Source: a virus. From it: DNA of 64,000 nt. Positions 2,780 to 61,783 of this stretch are shown here, piece after piece (positions within the stretch are counted from its first letter, which is position 1; every line of letters starts with the position of its first letter). The translations under genes were made by a program, and so were the position numbers. The notes under the pieces are model-generated. The model searched no databases. It worked only from the letters and a program-made list of their open reading frames with translations, and was not told where the DNA came from. The stretch spans positions 29,778-93,777 of the IMG/VR virus record IMGVR_UViG_3300013102_000005; one strand, given 5' to 3'.

Positions 2780-4318
2780 CTACCGGATGCCCATGGCCGC
2801 CAGGGTCCTCGCCACCGCGTCGTCCTTGCGCTCGGAGACGGCCAGCACCTGCACGTCCTCGCTCTGGATGTAATGGGCGTTCTCCAGGAAGGCAAAGGCG
2901 ATGGTGTCCCAGATGTCAGGGGAGGGCAGGCCTTCCTTCTGCTGCATGTCGATCTTGCTCATCAGCTGCCACCGGCCTTTCTCGTCGAAACCGAAGGGGA
3001 TGCGTGAGCCTTGGTCGAGCATGTCGTTCTGCTGGGCATCGCAGAAGCTGATTCGGTTGTTGTCCACGGCCAGTTTCAGGTGCACGTTGCACTGGGCCCG
3101 CTGGTTGATGAAGCGCTCGCGGTATTCTTTGCGGAAGTTCGGCACGCCCCAGCTCACGTTGGTGATCAGGGGTACGCCCAGGCGCTCCAGCATCTTGGCG
3201 AACTGGATGCCCTGGCCACCGACGTCCACCAGCACGGTGCAGTTCGAGTATTTGGCAGCCTCCAGCGCCACCATGGCCGCCGCGTCCGTCCAGTCCCGGC
3301 TGTTGGTGTAGATCGGGATGTCCAGGACGTCCACCCGCCTGGGCTCGGGCGCCTCCGACCCGCCCTGGCCGATGACCCGCACGAGGGTGCCCACCGTCTT
3401 GTCGCGGTAGACGCCGCCGCCCACGTCCACCAGCAGGAAGTAGCCGTAGGGCTCGTCCTCGCCGATCACGCGATGCTCCTCGCCGATCAGGCGCTCGATG
3501 GAGCGCCGGCCGAGCAGGTACTTGTCGGAATGCTCGGGGAACCGACCCTGGACCTTGACCTGGTACTCCACGGAGTCGCGGCTGCCGTACTCCAGCGCCT
3601 TGTCGCGGATGAACTCGTCCGAAACGATGGGCGAGTCCTCGGAGTTGAACACGAGGCTCGTCCAGAGCCCTCCGTTGCGTACCGCCCACTTGTGATGGGT
3701 CTCGTAGAAGAAGCCCGACCCCCGGGTAGGCTGGCTGGCCAGCGCAAAGCGGTTGCGCTTGTCGGTCAGGGCGCCGGCGATGACCTTGAGGTTCGCGTCG
3801 GGGATACCCGAAGCCTCGTCACCCAGCCACAGCAGGTAGTTGCCGTGCGTACCGGCCATGTTCTCCGGCGAGCCGCGCGGTGCCGTCCGGCAGGTGATGA
3901 ACCAGCGCATGCTGGCGCCTTTGACGTAGACCTTCTTCGCCTTGATCTCGAAGTATTCGGCCACCCAGCCCTGCGGGCCCTGCTCGATCACCTCCTTGAG
4001 GGTCGAGAACTCTTTCCAGATGCCTTCCGACAGGGTGTTGAGCTTGGGCGCGGTCAGGTAGGTGTTGCTGTCCGCGTAGCAGAGCAGGTGCCACAGGGCG
4101 ATGACGGCAAAGGAGCGGGTCTTGCCCGTACCGTGACCGGACGACACTGAGGTGCGCGAGCCGAAGGGGGAGACACTGTTGAACAGGTCCACCTGCTGCC
4201 AGGTGATCGAGGTCATGCCGCAGACCTCTACGGCGAAGCGCGCCGCATCCATCGCATAGCGCTCGGCGAAGGCCTTCCAGCGGACATCGGCCGAGAGGGC
4301 CCGGATCTTCTTAGCCAC
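2780..4318 (-). CDS. pacB: Terminase large subunit, P1 PacB-like
   Basis: Walker A SGHGTGKT, Walker B DEASG, C-terminal nuclease DVGGG...SPDIWD. Confidence 0.92.
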   Translation of the reverse strand: MAKKIRALSADVRWKAFAERYAMDAARFAVEVCGMTSITWQQVDLFNSVSPFGSRTSVSSGHGTGKTRSFAVIALWHLLCYADSNTYLTAPKLNTLSEGIWKEFSTLKEVIEQGPQGWVAEYFEIKAKKVYVKGASMRWFITCRTAPRGSPENMAGTHGNYLLWLGDEASGIPDANLKVIAGALTDKRNRFALASQPTRGSGFFYETHHKWAVRNGGLWTSLVFNSEDSPIVSDEFIRDKALEYGSRDSVEYQVKVQGRFPEHSDKYLLGRRSIERLIGEEHRVIGEDEPYGYFLLVDVGGGVYRDKTVGTLVRVIGQGGSEAPEPRRVDVLDIPIYTNSRDWTDAAAMVALEAAKYSNCTVLVDVGGQGIQFAKMLERLGVPLITNVSWGVPNFRKEYRERFINQRAQCNVHLKLAVDNNRISFCDAQQNDMLDQGSRIPFGFDEKGRWQLMSKIDMQQKEGLPSPDIWDTIAFAFLENAHYIQSEDVQVLAVSERKDDAVARTLAAMGIR

Positions 4319-15324: not shown

Positions 15325-16560
<1,236 letters not shown>

Positions 16561-20284: not shown

Positions 20285-22123
20285 CTATAGCAAATCGAAC
20301 TGAGCGACAGTGGGCTGCACGGGTGCCGGCACGGCCTTTTCCGGGCGGGGCAGTACCGGGCGGGCAGGTTCAGACGCCGCCACCTCGGGCAACGCCTCGC
20401 CCTGGGCCACCAGATAGCGCCGCGCCAGGTGCTTGAGCTGGTTCTCACCAAGGTCGGCTCGCTCGACCAGATGCTGGCCAGGGTTGCGCACGCCCTCGAT
20501 CTGCTCACGCTTCACGCCCAGGACCTCGCACATGATCGGGTCGGTGCCGTCACTGGAGAGCGGGAAGAACGCTTGCACGGGCCGCTGCTGGCCATCGCGG
20601 TGGACTCGGCCAATGTTCTGCTCGATCACACCTGGCGACCAGTCCAGCTCGGCATGCACTGTGGTCGCGCACACGTGCTGTAGCCCATCGACGCCGGCGC
20701 CGGCGCGAACCGAGATCAGCATTACCCGTGCCTGGCCAGCCACGAAGGCGTCCTTGGCGGCCTGCTTCTGATTGGGCGACTCGCTGCCCGTGTAGAGCAC
20801 AGGGCTGTAGGTGGCCAGCGCCTCCTGGAGGATCGAATAGACCTCCCGGTGCCAGGCGAAGACCAGCACCTGCTCGCCCTGCTCCAGCAGCATGCGGGTG
20901 AACTCCGCCACGAAGGGCGCCTTCGCCACACCGGTGGCCTGGCGCATCAGCCGGTCGAACTCGCCGGCGGCCTGCATATGCTCGCCCCGGTAGCGCTCGT
21001 TCGCATCCAGGATCGTCTTGGCCAACTCCACCGCGTCGGTCTTCACCCGGCGCAGCACGCCCTCGTCGTGCTCGATCTCGTGGGTGATCTTGGTCAGCTC
21101 GGGCAGCTCGCGACCGACCTCCTCGCGGGTGCGGCGTAGCATGATCCCCTCGCGGCGCAGGTACTCGCCGAACATTTCGGCATCAGCCAGGCGGGGCTTG
21201 TCGTCGCCATAGTCGCGCACGCACCACTCGCGCAGGAACTCGTCCCGGTCGCCCAGGCAGTCCGGCAGGATCACGTCGATGACGTTCCAGAACTCGCCGC
21301 CGTAGTTGTAGATGGGGGTCGCGGACAGGCCCATGCAGTACCGGGCGTGGGCGCGCAGGTGCTTGGCCGCCGTGTAGATCTCGGTGCCGGAGCTGCGCAG
21401 CTGCTGGCACTCTTCAAAGACCACGTACTGCACCAGCTCGGCCAGCACCTCGGCCCAGCCGCGTAGCTTGTGATAGCTGATCAGGATCACGTCAGGCAGC
21501 GTGTCCCAGAGGTCCGTGCGGCGCTGACGCGGCTGCTTGATCAGCGGGTAGGGCGAACCCTTGTTCACGTGGTGCACGCGCAACCCAGGGCAGAACTCCG
21601 CCAGCTTCTCTGGCCAGTGGTTCGGCAGCGAGGCAGGGTAGACCACCACCGTGGGCAGATTGCCCGCCAGCGCCATCGCGCACATGGCGGTCACGGTCTT
21701 GCCCAGGCCGAGATCGTCGGCGACCAGCAGGCCGCCCTTGATCATCATCTGGGCGGCCGCATAGGCCTGGTACTGGCGTTCGGGCTTGGCCAGGCTGAAT
21801 GCGGGCACTTCGCGCCGGCCAGCCAGGAGATCGGCCAGGTCCTGCTCGGTGCGCACGTGCTCGGCAGCCAGGCGCTCCATGCGATCGCGGGTGGCCAGGT
21901 CCATGGTCATTGGATAGCGCTGGGTGAACCAGAGCAGCTCGCGGCTGTTCTCGGCGCTGGCCAGCAAGGGCAGGGTATTGGCGGCATGCTGCGGCGCGCG
22001 GGGGAAGACCCGCTTGAGCCTGGCGCGAACCTGGGGGTCGGCGGAGACGATCCAGCTGCGGCCGTCGAAGGCGATCGAGCCGAACGCGCGGACAGTGAGG
22101 GCCTGGGGTAGGGCTGCGGTCAC
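20285..22123 (-). CDS. SNF2-family helicase
   Basis: ADDLGLGKT, variant Walker B FEECQ, LSATP, QNIGRVHRDGQ. Confidence 0.9.
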   Translation of the reverse strand: MTAALPQALTVRAFGSIAFDGRSWIVSADPQVRARLKRVFPRAPQHAANTLPLLASAENSRELLWFTQRYPMTMDLATRDRMERLAAEHVRTEQDLADLLAGRREVPAFSLAKPERQYQAYAAAQMMIKGGLLVADDLGLGKTVTAMCAMALAGNLPTVVVYPASLPNHWPEKLAEFCPGLRVHHVNKGSPYPLIKQPRQRRTDLWDTLPDVILISYHKLRGWAEVLAELVQYVVFEECQQLRSSGTEIYTAAKHLRAHARYCMGLSATPIYNYGGEFWNVIDVILPDCLGDRDEFLREWCVRDYGDDKPRLADAEMFGEYLRREGIMLRRTREEVGRELPELTKITHEIEHDEGVLRRVKTDAVELAKTILDANERYRGEHMQAAGEFDRLMRQATGVAKAPFVAEFTRMLLEQGEQVLVFAWHREVYSILQEALATYSPVLYTGSESPNQKQAAKDAFVAGQARVMLISVRAGAGVDGLQHVCATTVHAELDWSPGVIEQNIGRVHRDGQQRPVQAFFPLSSDGTDPIMCEVLGVKREQIEGVRNPGQHLVERADLGENQLKHLARRYLVAQGEALPEVAASEPARPVLPRPEKAVPAPVQPTVAQFDLL

Positions 22124-25397: not shown

Positions 25398-25786
25398 GCG
25401 GCACCTCGCGCCCAGCGGCGGGCGTTGTATGGGTCGGGCTTGAACTCCAGGGCGACGCCCCGAACGGCCAGCGCCTTGACCAGCGCGCAACCGTCGCCGT
25501 AGCCAATCACCTTGGCCACCTGGATGAGGGTGTGAGTGGGCGCCAGTCGGCGGGCGGTGGTCACGACAGTCTCGCCACTGGTGCGAACCCAGTTCTGCGC
25601 CACCCAGCGGCTGGAGAAAGGGGATTGATCGCCCAGGCGATGGATATAGGCGCGCAGCGCCTCACGGCCGACGCCCATGATCTCGGCGCACTGGCGGATG
25701 CTGTGGCCCCGCTTGGCGAGCAGCACCAGCTGCGGGTAGCTGACAGGGGGCGTGGCGCCAGGGCGGCGCGGAATGCTGGTGCTCAT
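25394..25786 (-). CDS. HTH-containing protein
   Basis: GHSIRQCAEIMGVGREAL. Confidence 0.55.
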   Translation of the reverse strand: MSTSIPRRPGATPPVSYPQLVLLAKRGHSIRQCAEIMGVGREALRAYIHRLGDQSPFSSRWVAQNWVRTSGETVVTTARRLAPTHTLIQVAKVIGYGDGCALVKALAVRGVALEFKPDPYNARRWARGAA

Positions 25787-26462: not shown

Positions 26463-27389
26463 CTACAGGTTGCGCCGAGGGGCAGCGGCACCGGTGAATT
26501 TAGCCCGGTTGGCCTCCGCCTGCTTCATCGAACGCTCATACAGGGCATCCAGCTCGGCCGCGCTCACCAGATTGACCACGGTCTCCTGGCGCTCGTCGTA
26601 CAGGCGCAGAATCTTCATCAGGGTCTCACGGGCCCGTTCCTGGTTGTGCACCATCAGCTCCAGACCTTCCTTGGTGCGCTTCACGCCGGCATACAGTGCC
26701 TGAGCGGACGGAGACAGGTTGCGCGTGTCCTTGAACACCTCGCGCTCGATGCCTTCGCCGTAGCACTCCGGGCAGCTCTCGACCGGCTCCTTGCGTGGAT
26801 CGTAGCCCGTCCCGCCCTCGGGATCGGGTTCGGGCGGTAGGTCAGCGTCGCTGGCGTCAGGGTTGCGCTCCAGGGCCTTGCGCAGGTCCTCCTCCCACTT
26901 GCGCTGCCGGTTGCGCCACTCGCCTGGCTTGTACTGATACAGGTGATCCTCCCCGTAGCAGAAGCGGCAGCACTCCCGGCGCATCTCCATGAGTTCGTTC
27001 GGGTCAGCGAACGCAACGGCCACCAGCTGCTCTAGCACGCGCGTCTGGAGGTCTTCGCTCTTCTCGAACAGGACCTTGATGCGTAGCGCCATCAGCGCCC
27101 GGACCTTAGCGGAATTTAGCAGGCGATGCGCACTCGCACATGCCCCGCCGGTGCTCTGGACGTTGTAGACCGCCATGTAGGCCTTGGTCTGGTTGTAGGT
27201 CCGCAGGTACTCATCCACGAACTGGACGTGTTGCGGATCCATGCCAGAGACCAGCTCATCCTCAGCGGACAGCTTGGGATCGAGCACCACGGGAGCAGGC
27301 GCCTCCTCCTTGGCCGTAGCCTTGGATCGAGGAGGACGCTTGGGCTTGGCCTTGGGAGCTGGCTTATCCGCCTTGGGCTTGGGAGCCAT
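26463..27389 (-). CDS. Terminase small subunit
   Basis: FVDEYL..YNQTKAY...AHRLL HTH, AFADPNEL, CRFCYG...CPECYGEG, LYAGVKRTKEG. Confidence 0.85.
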   Translation of the reverse strand: MAPKPKADKPAPKAKPKRPPRSKATAKEEAPAPVVLDPKLSAEDELVSGMDPQHVQFVDEYLRTYNQTKAYMAVYNVQSTGGACASAHRLLNSAKVRALMALRIKVLFEKSEDLQTRVLEQLVAVAFADPNELMEMRRECCRFCYGEDHLYQYKPGEWRNRQRKWEEDLRKALERNPDASDADLPPEPDPEGGTGYDPRKEPVESCPECYGEGIEREVFKDTRNLSPSAQALYAGVKRTKEGLELMVHNQERARETLMKILRLYDERQETVVNLVSAAELDALYERSMKQAEANRAKFTGAAAPRRNL

Positions 27390-27510
27390 AGGGAGAACCT
27401 TGCAGGAATGAGAGGAACACGACCACGGAGCGCCCTGCTGATCGAGCAATGGGAACCGTAGGCGATGCGGGGTATCGAGCCTTGCCGACTAGGGCAGGTA
27501 TGTGAGCACC

Positions 27511-27554
27511 AGGGTATGAGGTGCTACGGGACGAAGCGGAGGGGGCTTTCCGAA
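27511..27554 (-). promoter_or_regulatory. Putative late promoter (TTCGGAAA-N30-TACCCT) for terS
   Basis: Motif and spacing conserved. Confidence 0.7.
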
Positions 27555-27578: not shown

Positions 27579-28115
27579 TTACCGGTGACGCTTGGACAGG
27601 TAGGGATTGGGGAGGCGGTAGACGGCGCGCTCGACCAGGCCGGCCCAGAACAGGGTGGCGGCACTCAGGGACACGGAGAGGCTGTAGGCACCGGCCAGGG
27701 CGGCAGTGCAGGCCTCATGACCGGTTACCGCTGTCAGGCCGAAGTAGACCAGGGCGGCGCAAGCATACAGGGCGCGACGGGCCCAGCGCTTCCAGCGTAC
27801 CGACATGCCGAGGCGGTTGCGCAGCTCGATGACGTCGCCCTCCCGCATGGTCATGCGCATATTGCCGCCGGCGGTGACCTTCACGCCCTTGTAGAGGAAG
27901 GCAGTACCCTCCCGTAGCTGGATGTCCACAAGGGTGTGCGGCTGTACGGCCATATCGGCCCGGCGGGTGGTCAGCCAGGCGCGCAGGCGGTTGGGGCGAG
28001 GTGGCAGCTTGCGGCTCTCTTCGGCCTCACGGCAACCCAGGCACCAGATCAGGTGGCCACCGATCTCGTCGTAGCGGCACTCGCAGGTCTGGGGGATACG
28101 AGGCTCACACGTCAT
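27579..28115 (-). CDS. Hypothetical membrane protein
   Basis: Two C-terminal hydrophobic segments; start uncertain. Confidence 0.5.
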   Translation of the reverse strand: MTCEPRIPQTCECRYDEIGGHLIWCLGCREAEESRKLPPRPNRLRAWLTTRRADMAVQPHTLVDIQLREGTAFLYKGVKVTAGGNMRMTMREGDVIELRNRLGMSVRWKRWARRALYACAALVYFGLTAVTGHEACTAALAGAYSLSVSLSAATLFWAGLVERAVYRLPNPYLSKRHR

Positions 28116-28283
28116 ACGTCACCTGGGTGATGGGTGAAACCATGGAAGAAAAACGCATGCTGGACCTCGGTAACGGTTGAATGGGTCCCGGTTACTCCAT
28201 CCGGGGCGCTCTGGTAGCGGCTTCGAGGGCACGCTGTGCGCAGCAAGCGACTTGCGGTCGCGGCGCCCGATACCCTGGGCGCG

Positions 28284-28389
28284 TGGTGCAGGTGGCCGGT
28301 GCCGTCTCTCCGGCTTGTTGCTCGTCCCGCTATGGGAGCAACCCCAGGCGGCGGGTTTCAGTGCGCATCGGCCTGCGCATTCACCTGCA
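28284..28389 (-). ncRNA. tRNA-shaped structured RNA ending in CCA
   Basis: TGCAGGTG/CACCTGCA 8-bp closing stem followed by CCA, TGCGCA/TGCGCA hairpin, GCCGG/CCGGC T-arm-like hairpin. Confidence 0.6.
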
Positions 28390-28460
28390 TCGGTAGAACG
28401 TCCTGCCAGGGCTCACCAGGAAAAGGTGCGGGCCCTGGCAGGGCGCTCTCCCATGCAGCC
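28385..28460 (-). promoter_or_regulatory. Long intergenic hairpin (RNase III-like processing stem), copy 3
   Basis: CTGCATGGGAGAGCGCCCTGCCAGGGC pairs with GCCCTGGCAGGACGTTCTACCGATGCAG. Confidence 0.55.
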
Positions 28461-28486
28461 CACACTGCCGTGGGTGCAATCGGGGG

Positions 28487-28984
28487 TCAGGCGGCGGCCC
28501 GCGCCTCTTGTGCAAGCGGCTGGCAGAAGTTGCGAGCGACCTGATCCAGGTACTTGGCGCCCACCAGGCCGAGGGTCTCAAAGCCGGCCAGCTCCTCAAC
28601 GCTGAACTGCACCAAGGAGACGAGATCCACGACGCCGGCCGGATACAGCACCTGGCGATATTCGTAGGGCACCCGCATATCCAGCAGGGAGGGATTACCG
28701 AAATCCACCTCCGGGCCATCCGCCAGGCACAGGCCATGAGCACGAAGCAGGTTGTGGATGTGTGCAGCGCCCCGGTAGCGGATACCCGGAATGTCGATGA
28801 GCTCTTCCAGGCTGGTGCACTGGAGATCGACGACGGTGAGGATGTTGGCGCGAGCCAGGTCGCTCAGCTGCTTGGTGCAAAGACCCAGGGTGGCCAGGTC
28901 GAGCGCGGCGATCAGCGCCCGATCAAGATCGGCGACGACGATGGCGGCGGCCAGGGAGGTGGTGCTAACACTGTCTTGGGTCAT
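28487..28984 (-). CDS. Protein with two tandem RNA polymerase alpha-CTD-like (HhH) domains
   Basis: LATLGLCTKQLSDLARANILTVVDLQCTSLEELIDIPGIRYRGAAHIHNLLRAHGLCL aligns by eye to RpoA CTD; second degenerate copy follows. Confidence 0.75.
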   Translation of the reverse strand: MTQDSVSTTSLAAAIVVADLDRALIAALDLATLGLCTKQLSDLARANILTVVDLQCTSLEELIDIPGIRYRGAAHIHNLLRAHGLCLADGPEVDFGNPSLLDMRVPYEYRQVLYPAGVVDLVSLVQFSVEELAGFETLGLVGAKYLDQVARNFCQPLAQEARAAA

Positions 28985-29002: not shown

Positions 29003-29050
29003 GGCTGTATGGGGGAGGCACCTGAGCCAGGGGACTCTCCGATACAGCCC
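29003..29050 (-). promoter_or_regulatory. Intergenic hairpin, copy 2
   Basis: GGCTGTATCGGAGAG...CTCCCCCATACAGCC. Confidence 0.55.
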
Positions 29051-29078: not shown

Positions 29079-29498
29079 TCAGCGGCGAGCGGCGCGCGGC
29101 TTCTTGGGCTTGGTGTCGGGCACCTGGGCCGGATCGGTCTTGGCCACCGCCGGGCCGGCATCGGCCAGCAGGGTGTGGCGCGGCAGGCCCTCGGGGGTGA
29201 CAGCCATGTGACGGCACTTCACGACGGTCGCCGGGGATCTCTGGCCAGGAAGGTCTGCAACGTCGTAAACCACCAGCACCAGGTGATCACCCACCTCGGG
29301 CAGTACGCCGCCCACGAAGGTGTCCGCGATCTTGTCGTTCTCGACAGCGACGCCGTGAGGGATGTACTCGGGCTCGGGCTGGCGACTGAGCCAGGATTGC
29401 GCCAGCGCGTGGATGGCAGGCGCCGAGTTCGGGTCTTGCAGCGCGCCATTGAGGGCGTATTGCAGTTGCTGGGGCGTCATGTCTTGCGGCTGATTCAT
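29079..29498 (-). CDS. Hypothetical protein
   Basis: 139-aa ORF between two homologous hairpins. Confidence 0.6.
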   Translation of the reverse strand: MNQPQDMTPQQLQYALNGALQDPNSAPAIHALAQSWLSRQPEPEYIPHGVAVENDKIADTFVGGVLPEVGDHLVLVVYDVADLPGQRSPATVVKCRHMAVTPEGLPRHTLLADAGPAVAKTDPAQVPDTKPKKPRAARR

Positions 29499-29531
29499 GT
29501 CGGTCTCACTGGTCTCGGGTTGCTGCTGCAT

Positions 29532-29692: not shown

Positions 29693-29761
29693 TGGGCGAG
29701 GCGGTGGAGTTGAACCACCGAGTCGGGATGATGAGTCCCGTCTTGCACCGGCATGCCTCGC
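29693..29761 (-). tRNA. Atypical tRNA, anticodon CAT (Met/Ile2), truncated D arm
   Basis: GCGAGGC/GCCTCGC acceptor then CCA; CGGGA-CTCATCA-TCCCG anticodon arm; GGTGG-TTCAACT-CCACC T arm; D arm only TGC-CGGT-GCA. Confidence 0.75.
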
Positions 29762-29973
29762 AGTGCTCATGCCCTCTTGACGCCCGTTGCCGGGGAGGAC
29801 TTACGACTGGGTCCCGCCATTGGGCCAGCCCACTCCGTTGGGCGACCCTGCCGAGGAGGTTGCCGGCAGGCGTATCAGCTGTGTGGGATGGTGGCCCTAC
29901 GCTCTCCACACCCACGTATCCAGGCTATCCCTCCGCGAGGGCCGCCCTGGCACGGTGTTTCCAATCCCTCAGC

Positions 29974-30717
29974 TCAAGCGAACAAGTCGCCGCTCGGGCT
30001 GCGTTCGGCCTGGGCCCGGTCGCGCAGGTCGGCGCGATCGGCGATCAGGTCGATGCTGATTTGCTTAACGTTCTGCGCGGTGGACTGGCGCATCCGGCGA
30101 TCAAACTCACCGTTGGCCACCTGGAACTCGCGCTCGATGATTTCGCAGTGCTTCAACTCGCCCGCGATACGGGCATCCGCACCGGTGATGACGTCTTCAA
30201 GGCCGCGCAGAGCCGCCTCCAGCGTTGCCGAGCCGCGCCACTCCTCCTCGTACTCGGGATTGAGCTGGGCCATGCGGCGATGGGCGTGCTTCACGTCCTT
30301 GAGCTTGATGGCGATACGCTGGAGGTCGGAGCGGTCCTGGTTCTGGCCCTGGAGGGCGACACCCACCTGCTGGGCCAGATACTCGTGGTAGCGGCTGGTG
30401 GACTCGGCGATGGTGTTGGCCACCAGCCTGACGCGAAAGCTCTGGTTGTTCTCGGCAGCGTCGGCCAGGGGGTCGTCGCTGGTGCCGGACAGGTAGTCCA
30501 GAGGTACTGCGAACAGCTCGGCCATGCCGATCATGTCCAGCAGCTTGGGCATGCGCTCACCGCTCTCCCAAAGACTGATCTGGGTAGCGTTTTCGTGTCC
30601 CAAGTGATGCGCAACTGCGTCCTGGCTCATGTCCGCCAATTTGCGGGCAGCGTAGATGCGGCAACCTATGATCTGGCGCAGCTTTGCGGCTCTTTCGGCA
30701 GCGGTCGGAATGGCCAT
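29974..30717 (-). CDS. XRE-family HTH regulator (candidate repressor)
   Basis: RIYAARKLADMSQDAVAHHLG...QISLWESGERMP...VPLDYL; operator TAGCAAATGATA at 30748-30759 upstream. Confidence 0.85.
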   Translation of the reverse strand: MAIPTAAERAAKLRQIIGCRIYAARKLADMSQDAVAHHLGHENATQISLWESGERMPKLLDMIGMAELFAVPLDYLSGTSDDPLADAAENNQSFRVRLVANTIAESTSRYHEYLAQQVGVALQGQNQDRSDLQRIAIKLKDVKHAHRRMAQLNPEYEEEWRGSATLEAALRGLEDVITGADARIAGELKHCEIIEREFQVANGEFDRRMRQSTAQNVKQISIDLIADRADLRDRAQAERSPSGDLFA

Positions 30718-30839: not shown

Positions 30840-31319
30840 CTAGGAAAACCGGATGATTTCGTCCACCTGCTGCTGTAGCCGCTGCTCGTCCAGCTGGTTG
30901 CGGTACACGTGCTTGAGGATGGCGTTGATGACGTCGGAGTAGATCGCCTGGGCCTGCTCTTCCTTGCAGTTGGCGTAGCTCAGGCTCGCGGCCTTGAGCC
31001 GCACCTTGCCGGTGATGTCATAGGTCGGCTCGTAGTGGCCGGCCATGATGATCAGGTCCTTGCGGAAGCGATCGATGCACGGCACCACCTGGCGGCCTCG
31101 GTACTCCATCGCGGCCAGGTTGTTCTCGCACCAGTGGTCATAGGCCACGCGGAACAGCACCATGGTTTTCTGGAGGAACTTGTAGTTGCGGACCTGCTTG
31201 ACCTCGCAACGCACGCCAGCGCCGACCTTGAGCCTTTGCAGCTGCTCGATGCCCTCCTCGGTGGCCGGCCGTAGCGACCCGTCCATGGTCTTGACGAGGA
31301 TGATCTCCAAGGCGCGCAC
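30840..31319 (-). CDS. DUF1367 family (NinB-like) protein
   Basis: VRNYKF..K...FRKDLIIMAGHY...ASLSYAN. Confidence 0.8.
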   Translation of the reverse strand: MRALEIILVKTMDGSLRPATEEGIEQLQRLKVGAGVRCEVKQVRNYKFLQKTMVLFRVAYDHWCENNLAAMEYRGRQVVPCIDRFRKDLIIMAGHYEPTYDITGKVRLKAASLSYANCKEEQAQAIYSDVINAILKHVYRNQLDEQRLQQQVDEIIRFS

Positions 31320-32074: not shown

Positions 32075-32515
32075 TCAGTCGTAGCTCGAGCTGGAGGAGC
32101 TGCTGGAGTCGCTGGAGCTGCTCGACCACGAGTCCGAGCCGCTGTAATGGCTATGACTGGAACTGGAGTGGTCGCTATGGCTCGGCGACTCACTACGCAC
32201 CGGCTCGCAGCGCACCGGCTCGGGATCGGCAAGCCGCTTGCGCGGTTCGTCGTCCAGGGCCGCCAGCTGATTCGCCTGATTGTAGGGCGACAGCGGATTG
32301 AGCGGATGCAGTGGGCTGGCCAGCCCCATCGAGTCCGCCGGCGCGCTTTGGCTTTCGAAGCGGACAGTGCCGGCCGGCGCAGACTGCTGGCGTACCTCGG
32401 CACGCTTGGCAGCCACCCCCGGCGGCACCTGGCGCGGCTCGGTCAGCGGAGGGGCGCCGGTGGCGCGCGCTACGGTCCGAGCCTTGCGGTTGCTCCACCA
32501 GGTGCGCAGGCCCAT
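32075..32515 (-). CDS. Phage protein with Ser-rich tail
   Basis: SPLHPLNPLSP motif and poly-Ser C-terminus. Confidence 0.65.
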   Translation of the reverse strand: MGLRTWWSNRKARTVARATGAPPLTEPRQVPPGVAAKRAEVRQQSAPAGTVRFESQSAPADSMGLASPLHPLNPLSPYNQANQLAALDDEPRKRLADPEPVRCEPVRSESPSHSDHSSSSHSHYSGSDSWSSSSSDSSSSSSSSYD

Positions 32516-32979
32516 CAGTGCAGCCCCATGGCGCCAGTGGAGCCAAAGCCGCCCGCGCCACGCTCGGTCGCCGGCAGTTCGACGGGATCGACCTCGCCCA
32601 GAGTGGTCGGCAGGTAGCCCTGGAGCACGATCTGCGCGACCCGCTCGCCATGCTGGAGGGTAATCGGCTGATCCCCCAGGTTGATCAGCGCCACCTTGAT
32701 CTCGCCGGTGTAGTCCTGATCGATCAAGCCGGCGAGCACGTCCAACCCATGGCGGGTAGCCAGACCAGAACGCGGCCAGATGAAACCGGCGACGCCCAGA
32801 GGGAAGTGGATGGCGAAGCCAGTCGGCACCAGGGTGCGCTGGCCAGGCATGAGGGTGTGCTCACCGACCGCCGATAGGTCCAGACCGGCCGCGCCAGGGG
32901 TAGCATGCGACGGGCGCGGCAGGTTGTGCTCGCCGATGCGGACACAGGAGACGAGGTGACGGGTAGGCATGTCGATCAT
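32515..32979 (-). CDS. dut: dUTP diphosphatase
   Basis: AAGLDL, PRSGLA, GLIDQDYTGEI, ERVAQ, RGAGGFGSTG. Confidence 0.95.
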   Translation of the reverse strand: MIDMPTRHLVSCVRIGEHNLPRPSHATPGAAGLDLSAVGEHTLMPGQRTLVPTGFAIHFPLGVAGFIWPRSGLATRHGLDVLAGLIDQDYTGEIKVALINLGDQPITLQHGERVAQIVLQGYLPTTLGEVDPVELPATERGAGGFGSTGAMGLH

Positions 32980-33266
32980 GCTGGCTTGACCTTGCGTGTG
33001 GCCCGGCTGGGCTGGAGGGTATAGGTCTGCCCTTGGTCGAGATCCCATGGGGTCTCGCTCTGGCAGTCCACACAGATTTTCAGGCGCAAGCTGGGCAGCT
33101 GAACCATGCACTTTCCGAAACAGCGCGGACAGACCTTGGTGGTCGGCAGGTCCGCGCCGGCAGGCGCGGCGGTCCGGTGACGCGCCTGGCGCCACCGATT
33201 GGATTTGGGCTTGCTCCAGACCCAGGCCAGCGCGACGCTCACGGCGAGCAGGATGATCTGTTTCAT
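32976..33266 (-). CDS. Membrane-anchored Zn-ribbon protein
   Basis: N-terminal hydrophobic helix, CPRC...CVDC. Confidence 0.6.
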   Translation of the reverse strand: MKQIILLAVSVALAWVWSKPKSNRWRQARHRTAAPAGADLPTTKVCPRCFGKCMVQLPSLRLKICVDCQSETPWDLDQGQTYTLQPSRATRKVKPA

Positions 33267-34477
33267 TCGCACAGTCCGTAGGCAGAGCTGCATGCCTTCC
33301 CATCGTCGGCGGCGGCCAGCAGGTCGAACTGGCGGCCCCCGCGCGCAGTCATCGACCACTCCACCATGCGCTCGATGCCATGCGTCTCATGAGCGATCAG
33401 GTCACTGGACAGTACCGTCGGGTCACCCACAGCCGGGAAGAACGTCGAGTTACCGCGCTTGCAGGCGATCGATACTGACCGCTCCCAGCGAGCCACCCGC
33501 TCGATCACTTCGGGGAAACGCCGGCTGATGTTGCTCAGCTCTTCCTTGCGAGTGTTAACGCACGGCATACAGCCCACGCGACCCATCCCCTCCTCGTACA
33601 GCGGGTTCCATTTGATGCCGTGCCGGCGGTGCATGTCGAACACGTCCGCAGCCGACCAGTGCAGCAGCGGCCGATAGTTGAACAGGCCGTTGCCGACTTC
33701 ATCCTGGATTGGAAGCAGGCTTCGAGCGCGGGACTCATCGGCACGAACGCCTTGCCAGCTGTAGACGTCGGCGGTGGTGTGCAGCGCCAGCAGAGGCTCG
33801 AATACCTGCCGCTGCATGGGGAAGACCTTGAGCTCCTGAGTGCAGAACCTGGTCTTGGTCCCAGGGAATCGGCCGCGCCACAGGCAGAGGTCCAGGAACG
33901 GGATACCCGTGGGTTGCAGCATGGCAATCGCGGCGGCACATACCTCATCGGCCTCGCCGGCCGTCAGCGGCCGCACGGCGCGTCGCGCCGGCATCCAGCT
34001 CCAGCACATGAAATCGTGGGGACCATAGACATGCACTGGTGAGCGGGTAGGCATCGGCACCGCTGGAGGGAAGTCGCTTTCGCTGTCGCAGCCCTCCAAG
34101 TCATTGCGATACCAATGGCCAGGCACCTCGGGTACGCCCGCCATCAACTCGGCCGGCCAGCGCTTGGCGATGTACTCGCGCTTGTGCGCCATCTGGCTGG
34201 TGAAGTCCGCGCGGATCCGCCGGATTTCGAGCCCCAGCGTGGTCTGGAGGTAGTCCACGTAGGCGTAGGTTACCGGGTGCTCATGCCCGGTATCGCAGAA
34301 CACCGCCATGAGGTTGGGCACGTCCAGCTCTCGCGCCAGCAGGAACAGCGCGGTGCTGTCCTTGCCACCGCTGATGCTGAGCACGTTGGTGTCGGCGGCA
34401 TCGAGGCCGGTGATGCGGCAGGTAGCGGCCACCAGGTCGTGGATACGGCCGGCCAGCGGGGTCATCATCATCGTCAT
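33263..34477 (-). CDS. PAPS reductase family protein
   Basis: SISGGKDSTA, DTGHEH, RFCTQELK, GVRADESRAR, RVGCMPC. Confidence 0.9.
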   Translation of the reverse strand: MTMMMTPLAGRIHDLVAATCRITGLDAADTNVLSISGGKDSTALFLLARELDVPNLMAVFCDTGHEHPVTYAYVDYLQTTLGLEIRRIRADFTSQMAHKREYIAKRWPAELMAGVPEVPGHWYRNDLEGCDSESDFPPAVPMPTRSPVHVYGPHDFMCWSWMPARRAVRPLTAGEADEVCAAAIAMLQPTGIPFLDLCLWRGRFPGTKTRFCTQELKVFPMQRQVFEPLLALHTTADVYSWQGVRADESRARSLLPIQDEVGNGLFNYRPLLHWSAADVFDMHRRHGIKWNPLYEEGMGRVGCMPCVNTRKEELSNISRRFPEVIERVARWERSVSIACKRGNSTFFPAVGDPTVLSSDLIAHETHGIERMVEWSMTARGGRQFDLLAAADDGKACSSAYGLCE

Positions 34478-34870: not shown

Positions 34871-35704
34871 TTAGCCGCTGAGCTGCTGCCGCTTGGCCGC
34901 GAGGAGCCGCAGCTCCGCCTCGGCGACCTGGCGCTGGCGCGCCTCCTCGAACTCGCGCTCACGCTGCTGGAGCGATCGCGCGTCCTCGACCTTCGGTGCA
35001 ATTCGCTTGCGCCCGCCCAGGGTGCTGAGCATGTCGCTGATCATGGCCTTCTGGGCCTCCGGTGCGATGGTGCGCTTTCCCGCGCCCTTGGCTTCCGGCG
35101 CCGGCAGGTAGGCGGCCGGCTTCTCGGGATCGTAGGGCGGCGGCACGGGCAGGCCTTCCTTGCGGGCCTTCTCCAGCGCGCTGGTAAAGCGCGAGCGGAT
35201 GTCCCGCCAGGACAGCTCCTCCAGGTCCTTACCCATGGCCACGGCCGCGTGATACACCGCAGGCTCTGTCCATCGCGCCTGGCTCACCAGCTCGCCGTCG
35301 ATACGGGCCGGCCGGCGGTGCTTCGGGATCTCGCGCACGGCCTCGTGGAACGCATCCTCGGGATCCAGGCGCGGCCGGCAGGCGGCGATGAAGTCTTCCA
35401 CCGTCACCCGCCCGAACTGCATGTCCCGACGGCTGATCACCTCGCCCAGCCTGGCCAGGCCGATCTGGACCTCATCCGGCCGCAGTTGGACGACCACGAA
35501 GCGCATCGCCCAGGCCTGGCGCCAGTGCTCCAGGGAGTCTTCGCTGGTGAAGTGACGCGACCAGGCACCCGGCATCAGGCCATTGAGGCGTGCCCACAGG
35601 ATCTGCATCAGCGACAGGCCGTCCAGGGCGGGCTCGCTGGGGCAGGGCCGTGACTCAGTCCAAACGTTCGGCTTGGCCTTCGATGACATCGCGATTGCGG
35701 TCAT
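34871..35704 (-). CDS. Replication protein P-like helicase loader
   Basis: Follows O-like gene; W...F.AACRP.LD.E.AF.EA...W..PAVY pattern. Confidence 0.55.
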   Translation of the reverse strand: MTAIAMSSKAKPNVWTESRPCPSEPALDGLSLMQILWARLNGLMPGAWSRHFTSEDSLEHWRQAWAMRFVVVQLRPDEVQIGLARLGEVISRRDMQFGRVTVEDFIAACRPRLDPEDAFHEAVREIPKHRRPARIDGELVSQARWTEPAVYHAAVAMGKDLEELSWRDIRSRFTSALEKARKEGLPVPPPYDPEKPAAYLPAPEAKGAGKRTIAPEAQKAMISDMLSTLGGRKRIAPKVEDARSLQQREREFEEARQRQVAEAELRLLAAKRQQLSG

Positions 35705-36623
35705 GGGTGCGCTCCTCTCGGGTGGATTGGGTGCCTCGGGCGTTGGCCAGCGTCGGATCGAACCGCTCCTCGCGGAGATCCTGGCGAGTATTGGCCGTGG
35801 GGTCTTCGTAGATCCGCAGGAATCGCTCGGTCTTCTCGGCCTCGCGGAAGATCAGCGACAGGTCGTTGTACTTCACCTTGCCCTTGATCGGCCGGCCTTG
35901 GTCGTCACGACCCATGTGGAAGTGCGAGCGTGAACACCCGGTGATGGCGTTCAGGGTCGTGTCCAGCCCGTAGGTTCTCAAGGCGCGGTTCAGGATGGCG
36001 CGGCGTTTGGCGTCGAGCAGCGAACGGGGGGATGCCATCGAGTTCTGCCAGTGAACGAATACCCGCTCCACGAGGCGCTCACGGTCAGCAGCGGTCAGCG
36101 CAGCAAACACATCGGCCGTCACCAGGCGTCCGTCGCCAGACGGACAAGTATCTGTCTCTACTGGATTATTGTTGTTTGTATTATTCCCTTGCGTGTTTTC
36201 CGAAGGGGGGTATTCGGATTCCCGAACACACCCCTTCGGAATCTCGAAGGGGTCAGAGCCCGTGTTCGAATTATCGAAGGGGGGCAAGTCTGGGCCCCGC
36301 GTCACAGAAACCGGCGCGCCCAGTGGACGGGTCAGACGGATGATCCGGGTCTGTACCTGCTTGGTCCCCGCCTTGTATTTCAGCTCCACCGAGATCAGGC
36401 GCTTCTGCTCCAGGCCGCTGATGATCTCCGATACCCGCGACTTGGACAGGTTGAAGAACTCAGCGAAGTAGGCGTTCTTGGCGTAGCACCCGCGCTCGAC
36501 GTCATCCAGGCTGTCGATCTCCGTCAGCATCACCTTCTCGACGATGGACAAGTCCCGATCCAGCCACACCTCGGCGGGGATCCAGACGCCCTTGAATTTG
36601 CGTTTTGGCTCGAAACACGTCAC
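35655..36623 (-). CDS. Lytic replication initiator (N-terminal winged HTH, lambda O-like)
   Basis: FKGVWIP.EVW...LTEIDSL...GCYAKNAYFAEFFNLSKSRVSEIISGL; internal iterons. Confidence 0.8.
   Translation of the reverse strand: MTCFEPKRKFKGVWIPAEVWLDRDLSIVEKVMLTEIDSLDDVERGCYAKNAYFAEFFNLSKSRVSEIISGLEQKRLISVELKYKAGTKQVQTRIIRLTRPLGAPVSVTRGPDLPPFDNSNTGSDPFEIPKGCVRESEYPPSENTQGNNTNNNNPVETDTCPSGDGRLVTADVFAALTAADRERLVERVFVHWQNSMASPRSLLDAKRRAILNRALRTYGLDTTLNAITGCSRSHFHMGRDDQGRPIKGKVKYNDLSLIFREAEKTERFLRIYEDPTANTRQDLREERFDPTLANARGTQSTREERTHDRNRDVIEGQAERLD
36145..36285. repeat. Putative lytic origin: iterons plus AT-rich tract inside initiator gene
   Basis: TTCGGATTCCCGAA, TTCGGAATCTCGAA, TTCGAATTATCGAA and a partial copy, beside the AT-rich 36145-36190 tract. 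Confidence 0.6.
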
Positions 36624-46286: not shown

Positions 46287-47411
46287 CTACCAGAGCCGCT
46301 CTGCCAAATCACTCCCTCGGAGCGAGAGATAACGCCGCAGCGTGTTCACGTTGCGGTGCCCCGTTATCCGCGCGATCACCATCATGTCCATGTTCGTCCG
46401 CTCGAAGTAGCGGCAAGTCGCTTCGTGCCGGCAGTCATGGAAATGGAAGTCGCTGCACTCGGCGGCATCGAATATTCGCGCGAACTGGCGCGAGAGCAGC
46501 GCCGACACTCGTTTCAGTTCCTTGGCCGCACGCGCCCCTGACCACCACGGAAACAGCGGATCGTCGCCCTCCCCCGCGTGGCGCTCGATGCAGCCCTGGA
46601 GTACGCGCACCGCGACCGTCGATAGCGGCACCTGGCGGGTGTCCCCGTTCTTGGTTCGGTCCAGGTAGACGGTACGCCTGGCCAGGCTCACCTGATCCGG
46701 CGTGAGTGTGTAGATCTCGCGCAGTCGCATAGCGGTTTCCAGCGCCAGGTCGAACACGGCAAGGAGATCCTCCCGATGCTCCAGGCGCAGGGGGCGCTGG
46801 CGGCCGGTCGGCGTCTCACGGTCCAGAATCTCGCGCACAGCCTGTTCCTCCTCGCCGGCCAGGCGCCGGTCACGGACGCCCTCCTCTATCGGCGGCAGGT
46901 TTCGCTGAGCCAGCGCCTGGCGATCGGCGTCGTTGTAGGTGGCATAGCGCCTGGGCAGCTCCCGAACCGGATTGGCTGCTAGCCGCTTGCGGCGAACAGC
47001 CCAGTCCATCGCCCGGCCCAGGGCCCCAACGTAGTGCCGGATGGTCACCGGTGCCAAGCCGCGCTCGCGTTTCATCACCAGGATCCAGCCATCGAGCCAC
47101 CCATGGTCCAGCTCGGTGATGGTTCGCCGGCCGTGCTGGCGCGCAATGGCCGCCAGCAGCGGCGGGTCAGATTCCGATACCGCCACCGCCTCCTGGTACT
47201 CCTCGATGAGGCGAGACAGGGTCAGCGGTGGTGTCAGGCGATCACGCAGGATCGGATGGATCACGCCGTCAGCCAGGCCTGCCTCAATGGCAGCGACTAC
47301 AGCGTCACCCTCCTCCTCAGTCGCGAAGCTCAGCGACACGGGCCGCTCCAGCAGCCCCTTGCGGCGCACGACGTATTCCCAAGACCGGCCGCGCAGGCGC
47401 TTGGTTGCCAT
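46287..47411 (-). CDS. Tyrosine recombinase/integrase
   Basis: TAMRLRE, RTKNG, FHDCRHE, ITGH, RRY catalytic residues. Confidence 0.93.
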   Translation of the reverse strand: MATKRLRGRSWEYVVRRKGLLERPVSLSFATEEEGDAVVAAIEAGLADGVIHPILRDRLTPPLTLSRLIEEYQEAVAVSESDPPLLAAIARQHGRRTITELDHGWLDGWILVMKRERGLAPVTIRHYVGALGRAMDWAVRRKRLAANPVRELPRRYATYNDADRQALAQRNLPPIEEGVRDRRLAGEEEQAVREILDRETPTGRQRPLRLEHREDLLAVFDLALETAMRLREIYTLTPDQVSLARRTVYLDRTKNGDTRQVPLSTVAVRVLQGCIERHAGEGDDPLFPWWSGARAAKELKRVSALLSRQFARIFDAAECSDFHFHDCRHEATCRYFERTNMDMMVIARITGHRNVNTLRRYLSLRGSDLAERLW

Positions 47412-60163: not shown

Positions 60164-61783
60164 TTACCGGCTCAGGGTCTGGCCCACGGTGATGACGCGG
60201 GTGGTGCCCTCGTAGCTGCACGAATGGCGCTCGTCGATCTTCTGCTTGGGCTGGGCCGAGTTCGGCTTGATGGTGGCCATGTAGGCCGCGCCACCCATGT
60301 CGTCCGAAGGCACCAGCCAGCCGGCGGTCTGCAACGCCGGGAACAGAGCCTCGATGTAGCGGGTGGTCAGCCGGATCGCTTCGCTGATCGGCTTCTGGAG
60401 CGCTTCCTTGGTGAAGATGGCAATGGCCTCGTCCACCGCTGCCGACATCTCAGCCACCGCTGCTAGCTGCTTGTCACCGTTGCTCTTGGAGCAGGTCAGC
60501 GAATCGAGGAAGACGTACTTGGCGCCGGAGGCGTAGGTCTGGGAGATCACCGGATTGATCTTGGCCTTGGCCAGCTTCTCCAGGTCGGCGTCTTCCAGGT
60601 TCACCAGCTGACGCACGCCAGTGCGGCCGGTCAGCGGGAACATGGACCCGGCGACCGGGTAATGCTTGGGTGCCACGCCGTTGGCGTCGGTCTGGGCGTT
60701 GCGCTTGCAGCGCAGGCCGAGGTGGGCGCCGGAGGTGCCGATGATCGCCTTGCCACCGTTGAGCGGGTCGTCCGAGTTCAGCGGGGCCCACAGCGCCTGG
60801 GTGTAGTGGTTGTCCAGGCCCAGATTGGCCATGAAGGCAACGGCGCCGGTCAGGGACAGCTCGCCCGGCACGTCGAACACGAAGACCTTGTTCATCTTGG
60901 TGGCCAGGGCGTCGAGCTTGCTCAGCAGGGCGACGTTCTTGCTTCCACCAGCACCCAGGTAGCCGAACGACTGGTTCGCGTGGAACAGGCGGTTGAGCGC
61001 TGCGTCGTAGTCGGTCGCCGCGTAGGTGGTGCCGCCCTCGTTGAAGTAGCTCAGGGTCGCATAGACCCACTGATCGTTGCCGTTGGCGTCCTGGCCATAG
61101 ATGTTCGAGGTGGCCGGCACGGTGGTGCCCTTGACCGAGACCTCTACGAGATCCGTCTGGCTGGCGACGGTGGAGCCCAGGAAATAGGAGTTGCCCGACT
61201 GATCCTTGTCGGTGACCACCAGCGAGCCGGTGAAATCGTCGAACAGCAGCTCGCCGCTGACCACGTCGTAGAGGCGAACCTTGACCACCTTGGACGCGAC
61301 AGCGGCGCCGGTGTTGTCGGCGGCCTCGACGGCATGGATGCCGATCTTGACGCCATCGTTGAAGCATTCCAGGTGCCGGATGGCTACCAGGTAGTCCGCC
61401 GGCAAGGCGCTGGCGACGCTCCAGGTGACGGCCTTGCTGGTGGTATCCATGGTGGCGACCATGTAGCTCAGGGTGGCGGCGGCCGGCACGATGCGCGAGC
61501 AGACGACTTGGGCGGCGCCGTTGGCCAGCGCCTCATAGACGTGCACGTGCGCCTCGTTGAGCGCGCTCGCCAGGATGGAGGTAGCCTGGCCCAGGCTGCG
61601 CGAACGGTTGCTCGCAGTGACCGGGAACGCCCGGTCAATCGCCCCGCGATCGGCGCGCAGCGGGATGGCCACGACCTGATCGCTGTCCGAGGCGGTGCCG
61701 CGCTCGGAGGCGTCGGCGAGATAGAGCAGCTGCACGCCGGAGCGGTAGACCGGAGCGCTGCGCGAAAACGCGGTTTGAGTCAT
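60164..61783 (-). CDS. Tail sheath protein (P1 gp22-like)
   Basis: 539 aa; HYPVAG..FPL, LAKAKINPV, FLDSLT; follows capsid gene. Confidence 0.85.
   Translation of the reverse strand: MTQTAFSRSAPVYRSGVQLLYLADASERGTASDSDQVVAIPLRADRGAIDRAFPVTASNRSRSLGQATSILASALNEAHVHVYEALANGAAQVVCSRIVPAAATLSYMVATMDTTSKAVTWSVASALPADYLVAIRHLECFNDGVKIGIHAVEAADNTGAAVASKVVKVRLYDVVSGELLFDDFTGSLVVTDKDQSGNSYFLGSTVASQTDLVEVSVKGTTVPATSNIYGQDANGNDQWVYATLSYFNEGGTTYAATDYDAALNRLFHANQSFGYLGAGGSKNVALLSKLDALATKMNKVFVFDVPGELSLTGAVAFMANLGLDNHYTQALWAPLNSDDPLNGGKAIIGTSGAHLGLRCKRNAQTDANGVAPKHYPVAGSMFPLTGRTGVRQLVNLEDADLEKLAKAKINPVISQTYASGAKYVFLDSLTCSKSNGDKQLAAVAEMSAAVDEAIAIFTKEALQKPISEAIRLTTRYIEALFPALQTAGWLVPSDDMGGAAYMATIKPNSAQPKQKIDERHSCSYEGTTRVITVGQTLSR

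Follow-up and report, generated by a model that had tools for sequence, protein, structure and literature searches.

Why would a temperate phage encode a short, detached protein built from two units that resemble the RNA polymerase (RNAP) α subunit's C-terminal domain (α-CTD), and on what would such a protein act? The question is raised by one gene in a 93,777-bp IMG/VR virus genome that carries direct terminal repeats and is rated complete; the window, meaning the whole stretch of DNA analysed, is the final 64 kb of that record. The phage is a temperate myovirus of 93.8 kb, with integrase and tail sheath genes present, and has a G+C content of ~65%. The gene, its product P0001 with its domains, and the surrounding features are located in Table 1.

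Table 1 Positions of the P0001 gene, its encoded domains and neighbouring features in the window
Feature	Position	Strand	Basis or remark
Gene for P0001 (165 aa)	28487–28984, stop included	−	ORF and translation
N-terminal hydrophobic helix, residues 5–27	28904–28972	−	AF2 helix, pLDDT 51–66
Domain 1, residues 28–90, α-CTD-like (HhH)2	28715–28903	−	hhalign, VIA-align
Inter-domain linker, residues 91–102	28679–28714	−	pLDDT ~74
Domain 2 core, residues 103–159 (fold matches from 96)	28508–28678	−	hhalign, fold matches
Imperfect hairpin	29003–29049	−	18 nt before the ATG, between 150-aa gene and P0001 gene
Very stable hairpin	~28385–28462	−	~25 nt past the stop; −55.8 kcal/mol
150-aa orphan gene	29079–29531	−	Flanks P0001 gene upstream
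178-aa Cys-rich orphan gene	27579–28115	−	Flanks P0001 gene downstream
Late-promoter-like motif	27511–27554	−	TTCGGAAA, 30 nt, TACCCT; between 178-aa gene and terS; operon end
Other nine motif sites	41, 1929, 4501, 31460, 44802 (+), 51468, 52709, 55247, 58068		
terS (Terminase_2 small subunit)	26463–27449	−	
TerL (large terminase)	2780–4318	−	
RtcB	15325–16560		
tRNA-Met (CAT)	29694–29761	−	ARAGORN; between HTH_3 gene and 150-aa orphan gene
HTH_3 protein	29974–30717	−	
NinB (NinB/Orf)	30840–31319	−	
dUTPase fusion protein	32515–33303		Adjoins PAPS-reductase-like gene
PAPS-reductase-like protein, 499 aa	33263–34762	−	phrog_424, E 2e-71; early operon
O-like initiator	35655–36623		
Integrase	46287–47411		
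Tail sheath	60164–61783		

The reading frame of P0001 opens with an ATG at 28984, closes with a TGA stop at 28487–28489 and encodes 165 aa. A longer reading of 224 aa from an ATG at 29161 was rejected: it would run into both the upstream gene and the hairpin, and every relative begins MTQD. The family comprises 10 distinct sequences, each of 165 aa, and the close relatives are 81–97% identical and all belong to one phage lineage. One member (WP_313417014.1), annotated as 'hypothetical protein', lies on a 90.9-kb contig of Pseudomonas oryzihabitans and thereby names the likely host group. IMG/VR yielded one syntenic fragment of 7.6 kb (L002). No close relative was matched in GenBank phages by DNA or by protein (tblastn), nor in plasmids, GTDB species genomes or JGI metagenome contigs, and the protein has no PHROG of its own. 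Comparison with the L002 codons revealed 20 synonymous and five non-synonymous changes, with zero non-synonymous changes beyond residue 58; the gene is real and under purifying selection. Among the 10 members, 36 sites vary, 22 of them within residues 1–52. The N-terminal helix is the most variable part (11/36 variable sites), the linker contains no variable site at all, and domain 2 shows conservative changes only. The protein is acidic, with a pI of 4.59 and a net charge of −9; each domain is net negative, domain 2 alone carrying −3.2.

Domain 1 is a clear but divergent homologue of the RNAP α-CTD. At the level of family models the signal is faint: Pfam RNA_pol_A_CTD (PF03118) matches P0001 with E 0.0022 and 18.1 bits, under its 23.8-bit gathering cut-off (16.7 bits in a six-frame search of the genome, 17.0 bits with domain 1 alone), and the best Pfam match, also to domain 1, is RAD51D_N (PF21794; 20.3 bits, E 6.5e-4), under a cut-off of 27.3 bits. 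The three NCBIfam matches are all to rpoA models, through the last ~60 positions only (E 0.01). Among PDB sequences, the Thermus α-CTD (1doq) ranks best, reaching E 0.015 when the single sequence is the query and 0.0044 when the family profile is; the matches are mostly RpoA C-termini, with N-terminal domains of RAD51 paralogues among the rest. An α-CTD repeat profile was assembled from 116 Pfam-positive repeats in phmmer hits, P0001 being left out. Aligned to this profile by hhalign, domain 1 reaches a probability of 97.8% (E 1e-12, 58 columns), and the corresponding HMMER score is 30.5 bits. Against single sequences, hhalign scores of 20.1 for the E. coli α-CTD and 18.1 for E. coli NusA AR2 were each reached by none of 100 shuffles. 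Identity to the E. coli α-CTD amounts to 15 of 68 residues (22%). An α-NTD is absent, as the first-pass annotation had noted: the longest possible frame is the 224-aa one, and family searches gave HhH-type matches only. Without an α-NTD, P0001 is no part of RNAP.

Structure prediction agrees with this assignment. AF2 supplied with P0001 and three close homologues only gave an unusable model (pLDDT 42.7); a 19-row alignment that included repeat proteins raised the pLDDT to 78.7 overall and to 84–92 over both domain cores. Foldseek against the PDB returned nearly exclusively RNAP α chains as top matches (target-normalised TM ~0.8). In VIA-align, residues 22–90 superimpose on residues ~250–317 of E. 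coli α over 67 residues with Z 10.4 and an rmsd of 1.6 Å, a superposition that is not fully independent of the homology result, since the alignment behind the model contained α-CTD repeats. When domain 1 was put to a search independent of Foldseek, α-CTD chains took first and second place (Z 10.0 and 9.7, rmsd 1.6–2.1 Å), and superpositions on solved α-CTDs reach Z 10.0–10.4 and rmsd 1.4–1.9 Å over 63–68 residues. The profile and structure comparison with the α-CTD suggested at first pass is in this way borne out for domain 1, at a Pfam score below the cut-off. Among viral models, Foldseek places highest a set of phage proteins whose annotation reads 'RNA polymerase alpha subunit, C-terminal'; matches in the ESM Atlas (scores 0.81–0.88), which serve as leads only, all belong to the HhH/α-CTD clan.

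Domain 2 is probably a degenerate (HhH)2 domain of the α-CTD type. In a MAFFT alignment it lies 70 residues on from domain 1 and keeps register with whichever repeat comes next in each of the repeat proteins; domain 2 and the repeats coincide at the EEL motif, at the glycine of the hairpin and at the terminal PLA. The first unit of P0001 begins at residue 33 and the second at residue 103, each in register with P0019 and 14 other repeat proteins. The repeat HMM gives domain 2 only 2.2 bits, and domain 2 alone retrieves nothing from Pfam even at E ≤ 10. Its hhalign comparison with the 116-repeat profile scores 20.5 (probability 34%), a value reached by none of 100 column shuffles (8.3 ± 1.4, maximum 13.2). 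Two consecutive α-CTD-like segments, first discerned by eye, are accordingly confirmed, the second more weakly than the first. Because the AF2 alignment was filled with α-CTD repeat proteins, the fold and the homology of domain 2 constitute one line of evidence rather than two.

The affinities of domain 2 also extend beyond the α-CTD. Its closest fold matches are the C-domain of AF1548 (Z 9.5) and the N-domains of Rad51, Dmc1 and RAD51 paralogues (Z 8.4–9.7), the latter reflecting a shared superfamily only. NusA AR2 (2jzb_B) follows with Z 7.9 and 28% identity over 64 residues, which is among the highest identities in the list, and NusA AR1 with Z 7.0; Z values under 8, such as that for AR2, may reflect a shared arrangement only. 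In hhalign, domain 2 scores 22.7 against E. coli NusA AR2, with 36% identity over 42 columns including the terminal ARNxC, and none of 100 shuffles is as good (9.1 ± 2.0). The score against AR1 is 16.8, given without a shuffle control, and that against the E. coli α-CTD is 7.7, which is noise, being equalled by 86 of 100 shuffles. These comparisons with NusA and α-CTD used single E. coli MG1655 sequences, the NusA homologues found being only enterobacterial ones of 93–100% identity. Neither half of P0001 matches Pfam HHH_5 (PF14520), a model on which E. coli AR2 reaches 48.6 bits. The α-CTD repeat profile in turn matches NusA AR1 and AR2 in hhalign, with probabilities of 89% and 44%, indicating that the subfamilies overlap and that domain 2 fits no single one of them. 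By these alignments, domain 2 appears equally close to NusA AR2 and to the α-CTD repeats. We consider it very likely that P0001 consists of an N-terminal helix, an α-CTD-homologous domain 1 and a degenerate domain 2 of the same superfamily.

Where does such a protein come from? A phmmer search of 1.8 billion representatives retrieved 17 non-self matches (E 6.5e-17 to 7.6e-4), all of them long and matched in multiple stretches. Ten of the 17 were scanned with Pfam, and all carry 3–12 α-CTD stretches. Judged by sequence similarity, the nearest kin outside the phage lineage are bacterial tandem α-CTD repeat proteins, not RpoA, which argues that P0001 was not copied from the host α subunit. These proteins (P0004, P0006, P0019 and others) are 27–36% identical to P0001 per matched stretch and have in common with it a repeat spacing of ~70 residues and a head-to-tail order of units. 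They differ from it in length (180–2100 residues), in that every repeat passes Pfam, and in mostly retaining Arg at the R265 position, whereas P0001 has two repeats only, the second of them degenerate, and an N-terminal helix of its own. The α-CTD of RpoA (E. coli 249–329; PF03118) resembles domain 1 in its five-helix (HhH)2 fold, and domain 1 is basic where RpoA has R265 and K298; P0001 departs from RpoA in presenting the α-CTD-type unit twice in one chain, without an α-NTD or a flexible linker.

Detached α-CTD-type domains also occur in other tailed-phage proteins modelled in BFVD, including A0A6J5MNY7, A0A2P1JY10 of Rhodococcus phage Finch and A0A5Q2WLP1 of Mycobacterium phage Mithril, which, unlike P0001, mostly have one such domain joined to something else. 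In tblastn searches of GenBank phages, neither P0001 nor P0019 showed detectable similarity to phage α-CTD proteins. NusA AR1–AR2 (E. coli NusA 352–495; HHH_5) is likewise a pair of tandem acidic (HhH)2 domains, but P0001 lacks an HHH_5 match and its domain 1 lies nearer to the α-CTD. The title of PDB entry 1u9l describes NusA AR1 as binding lambda N. AR2 binds the α-CTD and SuhB (PMC6614801), and the partners of the α-CTD comprise DNA, sigma region 4, activators and NusA AR2 (PMC1874639, PMC6614801). Our literature search found no functional study of phage α-CTD-like or tandem α-CTD proteins. Detached and tandem α-CTD domains are already catalogued through Pfam/InterPro annotation, BFVD names and ESM Atlas clusters; the P0001 family is a new, divergent and lineage-restricted member, unnamed in current libraries.

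The residues through which an α-CTD works were then compared position by position, using the 265, 261 and 287 determinants as defined previously (PMC1874639). Sequence and structure agree on the numbering, residue n of domain 1 corresponding to residue n+227 of E. coli α. Within the DNA-binding 265 determinant, R265 is replaced by K38 and K298 by R71, both conservatively, and these are the sole basic contacts kept. The other seven contact positions, N268, C269, K271, N294, G296, K297 and S299, have become S, D, A, G, R, Y and G, respectively; at the N268 position the family carries S, A or G, indicating that it is unconstrained. K38, R69 and R71 together form a small basic patch on domain 1. 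The 261 determinant is lost, with D258, D259 and E261 replaced by A31, T32 and G34, while in the 287 determinant V287 is replaced by E60, with T285, E288 and L289 either retained or similarly replaced. In domain 2, R265 corresponds to E108 and K298 to V141, leaving zero basic DNA-contact positions; this domain would therefore be unable to bind DNA in the α-CTD manner. The earlier observation that DNA-contacting positions have diverged holds in the main, the two basic positions of domain 1 being the exception. From these substitutions, P0001 resembles neither an activator-soaking copy of host surfaces nor a protein that reads the late motif sequence-specifically.

The position of the gene was examined along the minus strand, where the order runs from the O-like initiator through the dUTPase fusion and a 356-aa orphan to NinB, HTH_3, tRNA-Met, the 150-aa orphan and P0001, followed by a 370-nt non-coding stretch, the 178-aa protein, a late-type motif and terS. 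The early (replication/nin) operon has one more gene after that of P0001, and P0001 lies upstream of the first late promoter. Lambdoid phages keep their late regulator upstream of the first late promoter, and the location of P0001 may be likened to that slot as a weak, positional hint only. The resemblance is one of gene position only, namely a place in the last part of the early operon ahead of a 370-nt structured non-coding stretch. Families of Q-type antiterminators (Q-lambda, Q21, Q82) did not appear among the Pfam, PHROG, NCBIfam or fold matches of P0001, and F116p37, the gene that occupies the equivalent slot in phage F116, whose terS is related, was rejected as a counterpart since it is unrelated to P0001. 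No sigma factor of the phage's own was found in its genome, and sigma region 2 appears nowhere in it. At 25637–25708 (minus strand), in a small ORF 3′ of terS, a helix-turn-helix resembling Sigma70_r4_2 scored weakly and below threshold (14 bits, E 0.004).

Several further features of the surroundings were recorded. Both orphans flanking P0001 lack matches in Pfam, PHROGs and NCBIfam, and the 150-aa one also among PDB sequences; the 178-aa protein has a Cys-rich N-terminus (CxC ... CxxC) and a C-terminal part that is hydrophobic by eye and possibly membrane-spanning. The terS and large terminase genes stand ~22 kb apart, which is not how packaging modules are usually arranged, with a PD-(D/E)XK-like gene, DUF1643, an SNF2-type helicase (20285–22123) and RtcB between them. 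The PAPS-reductase-like gene beside the dUTPase fusion may point to DNA modification or sulfur transfer. Next to tRNA-Met, positions 29877–29956 (minus strand) gave a sub-threshold Rfam match to Proteo-phage-1 RNA (26.3 bits, cut-off 42).

P0001 had also been described as lying between homologous hairpins, which holds in part. Both hairpins are present, and the base-stem words GGCUGYAUSGGAGAG ... AURCAG are common to them. The downstream one is exceptionally stable (z −5.6, with none of 200 shuffles as stable) and conserved in L002; the upstream one, an inverted repeat with 22-nt arms that are 82% complementary, is no better than shuffles (z −1.1). A role as terminators was discarded, as no U-tract follows either hairpin and no terminator-like site was called at the downstream one. 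The 370-nt non-coding stretch (28116–28486, minus strand) is ~95% conserved in L002 (5965–6365) except for one block at ~28300–28360, where L002 carries a longer, unrelated sequence, like a swapped cassette in a structured region.

A link of P0001 to the late motif is not supported. The motif itself is real: WTSGGAAA-N30-YANNNT occurs 10 times in the window against 0.04 expected, with nine of the 10 matches on the minus strand, and it is probably a phage promoter of late or middle type without a −35 element. Nothing ties P0001 to it. The HTH_3 protein, encoded two protein-coding genes upstream of P0001, is a more ordinary candidate for its reader.

What, then, would P0001 do? UP elements, class I/II activators, sigma region 4 and NusA all work on bacterial RNAP by way of the α-CTD as their hub; the textbook example of a phage that attacks this domain is T4, which ADP-ribosylates R265. 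The best explanation overall, which we put forward tentatively, is that the tandem (HhH)2 protein would bind proteins and serve the host transcription apparatus as an accessory factor; that it acts as a transcription factor by the route outlined here is a shade more doubtful. P0001 would be expressed distally in the early operon, immediately ahead of the first late promoter. The basic patch of domain 1 would present the face that in a real α-CTD binds the minor groove or NusA AR2, the invariant linker and domain 2 would provide a second, protein-binding surface, and the outcome would be a change, at about the time of the early-to-late switch, in host transcription that depends on the α-CTD or on NusA. 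The protein-binding reading is favoured by the acidity of the protein, by its lost DNA contacts and by the fact that conservation is strongest in the linker and in the half without contacts, as well as by the known partner range of α-CTD and NusA AR domains (PMC6614801). A predicted complex of P0001 with P. aeruginosa RpoA 240–333 scored 0.00 without controls and speaks neither for nor against binding. A bolder version, to which we give very little credence, would make P0001 a one-chain look-alike of both partners that intercepts the host contact between α-CTD and NusA AR2 from the lambdoid Q position, domain 1 binding NusA AR2 and domain 2 binding the basic face of the host α-CTD. If this were true, NusA-dependent pausing and termination, or the use of UP elements and activators, would be reprogrammed through a protein and not, as in T4, through ADP-ribosylation.

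The rival readings turn largely on how the same residues and neighbours are weighed. (HhH)2 domains are generic and serve recombination, repair and DNA uptake too, which, together with the proximity of the gene to NinB and terS, counts against a reading in terms of transcription. The main rival, in our estimate unlikely, holds that P0001 would be a sequence-independent DNA-binding accessory for recombination, replication or packaging, comparable to RuvA domain II, ComEA or the Rad51 N-domain. The location between NinB/Orf and terS would suit such a role, as would the Rad51-type and AF1548 domains heading the fold matches of domain 2, the RAD51D_N model at the top of the Pfam matches, and K38 and R71 at two key DNA-contact positions of domain 1. 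Against it weigh the negative charge of the whole protein and of each domain, the E and V at the key basic positions of domain 2, the freedom of the N268 position to vary, and the fact that the best-conserved parts, linker and domain 2, are devoid of DNA-contact residues.

The model originally advanced for this locus, a single-chain mimic of an α-CTD pair that titrates activators (Vfr/CRP), sigma or NusA, or else a late activator on the −50 to −43 motif, is the least consistent with the residues, and we regard it as improbable. It can draw on the superposition of domain 1 on a whole α-CTD, on T285, E288 and L289 of the 287 determinant being retained or similar, on a genuine late motif placed where the α-CTD or class I/II activators bind, and on a gene second-last before the first late promoter. 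The decoy half of this model is not supported, given the 22% identity, the lost 261 determinant, the acidic E60 in place of V287, the net charge of the protein, and kinship to repeat proteins rather than RpoA, by which host surfaces would not have been copied. As for the late motif, domain 2 cannot bind DNA as an α-CTD does, HhH domains read backbone and minor groove and are ill-suited to a G+C-containing 8-mer, and the HTH_3 protein is an obvious alternative reader. A protein-binding role outside transcription, for example as an acidic protein that inhibits a DNA-binding factor of host defence or of the nucleoid, or as a scaffold for the neighbouring orphans, would fit a small, acidic, lineage-restricted early-operon product without a PHROG, flanked by two family-less genes; no positive evidence points to it, we know of no DNA-mimic or anti-defence role for the (HhH)2 fold, and we judge it distinctly unlikely.

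For the phage, the favoured reading of P0001 as a protein-binding accessory of host transcription keeps its conditional character, and the identity of the protein has consequences of its own. An entry that NCBI lists as 'hypothetical protein' can be described as a tandem α-CTD-like (HhH)2 protein. Detached α-CTD-type domains recur in phage genomes and in the viral structure library, and P0001, whose host genus is cultivable, could be a handle on the role of this class, be it decoy, anti-α factor, NusA modulator or DNA binder.
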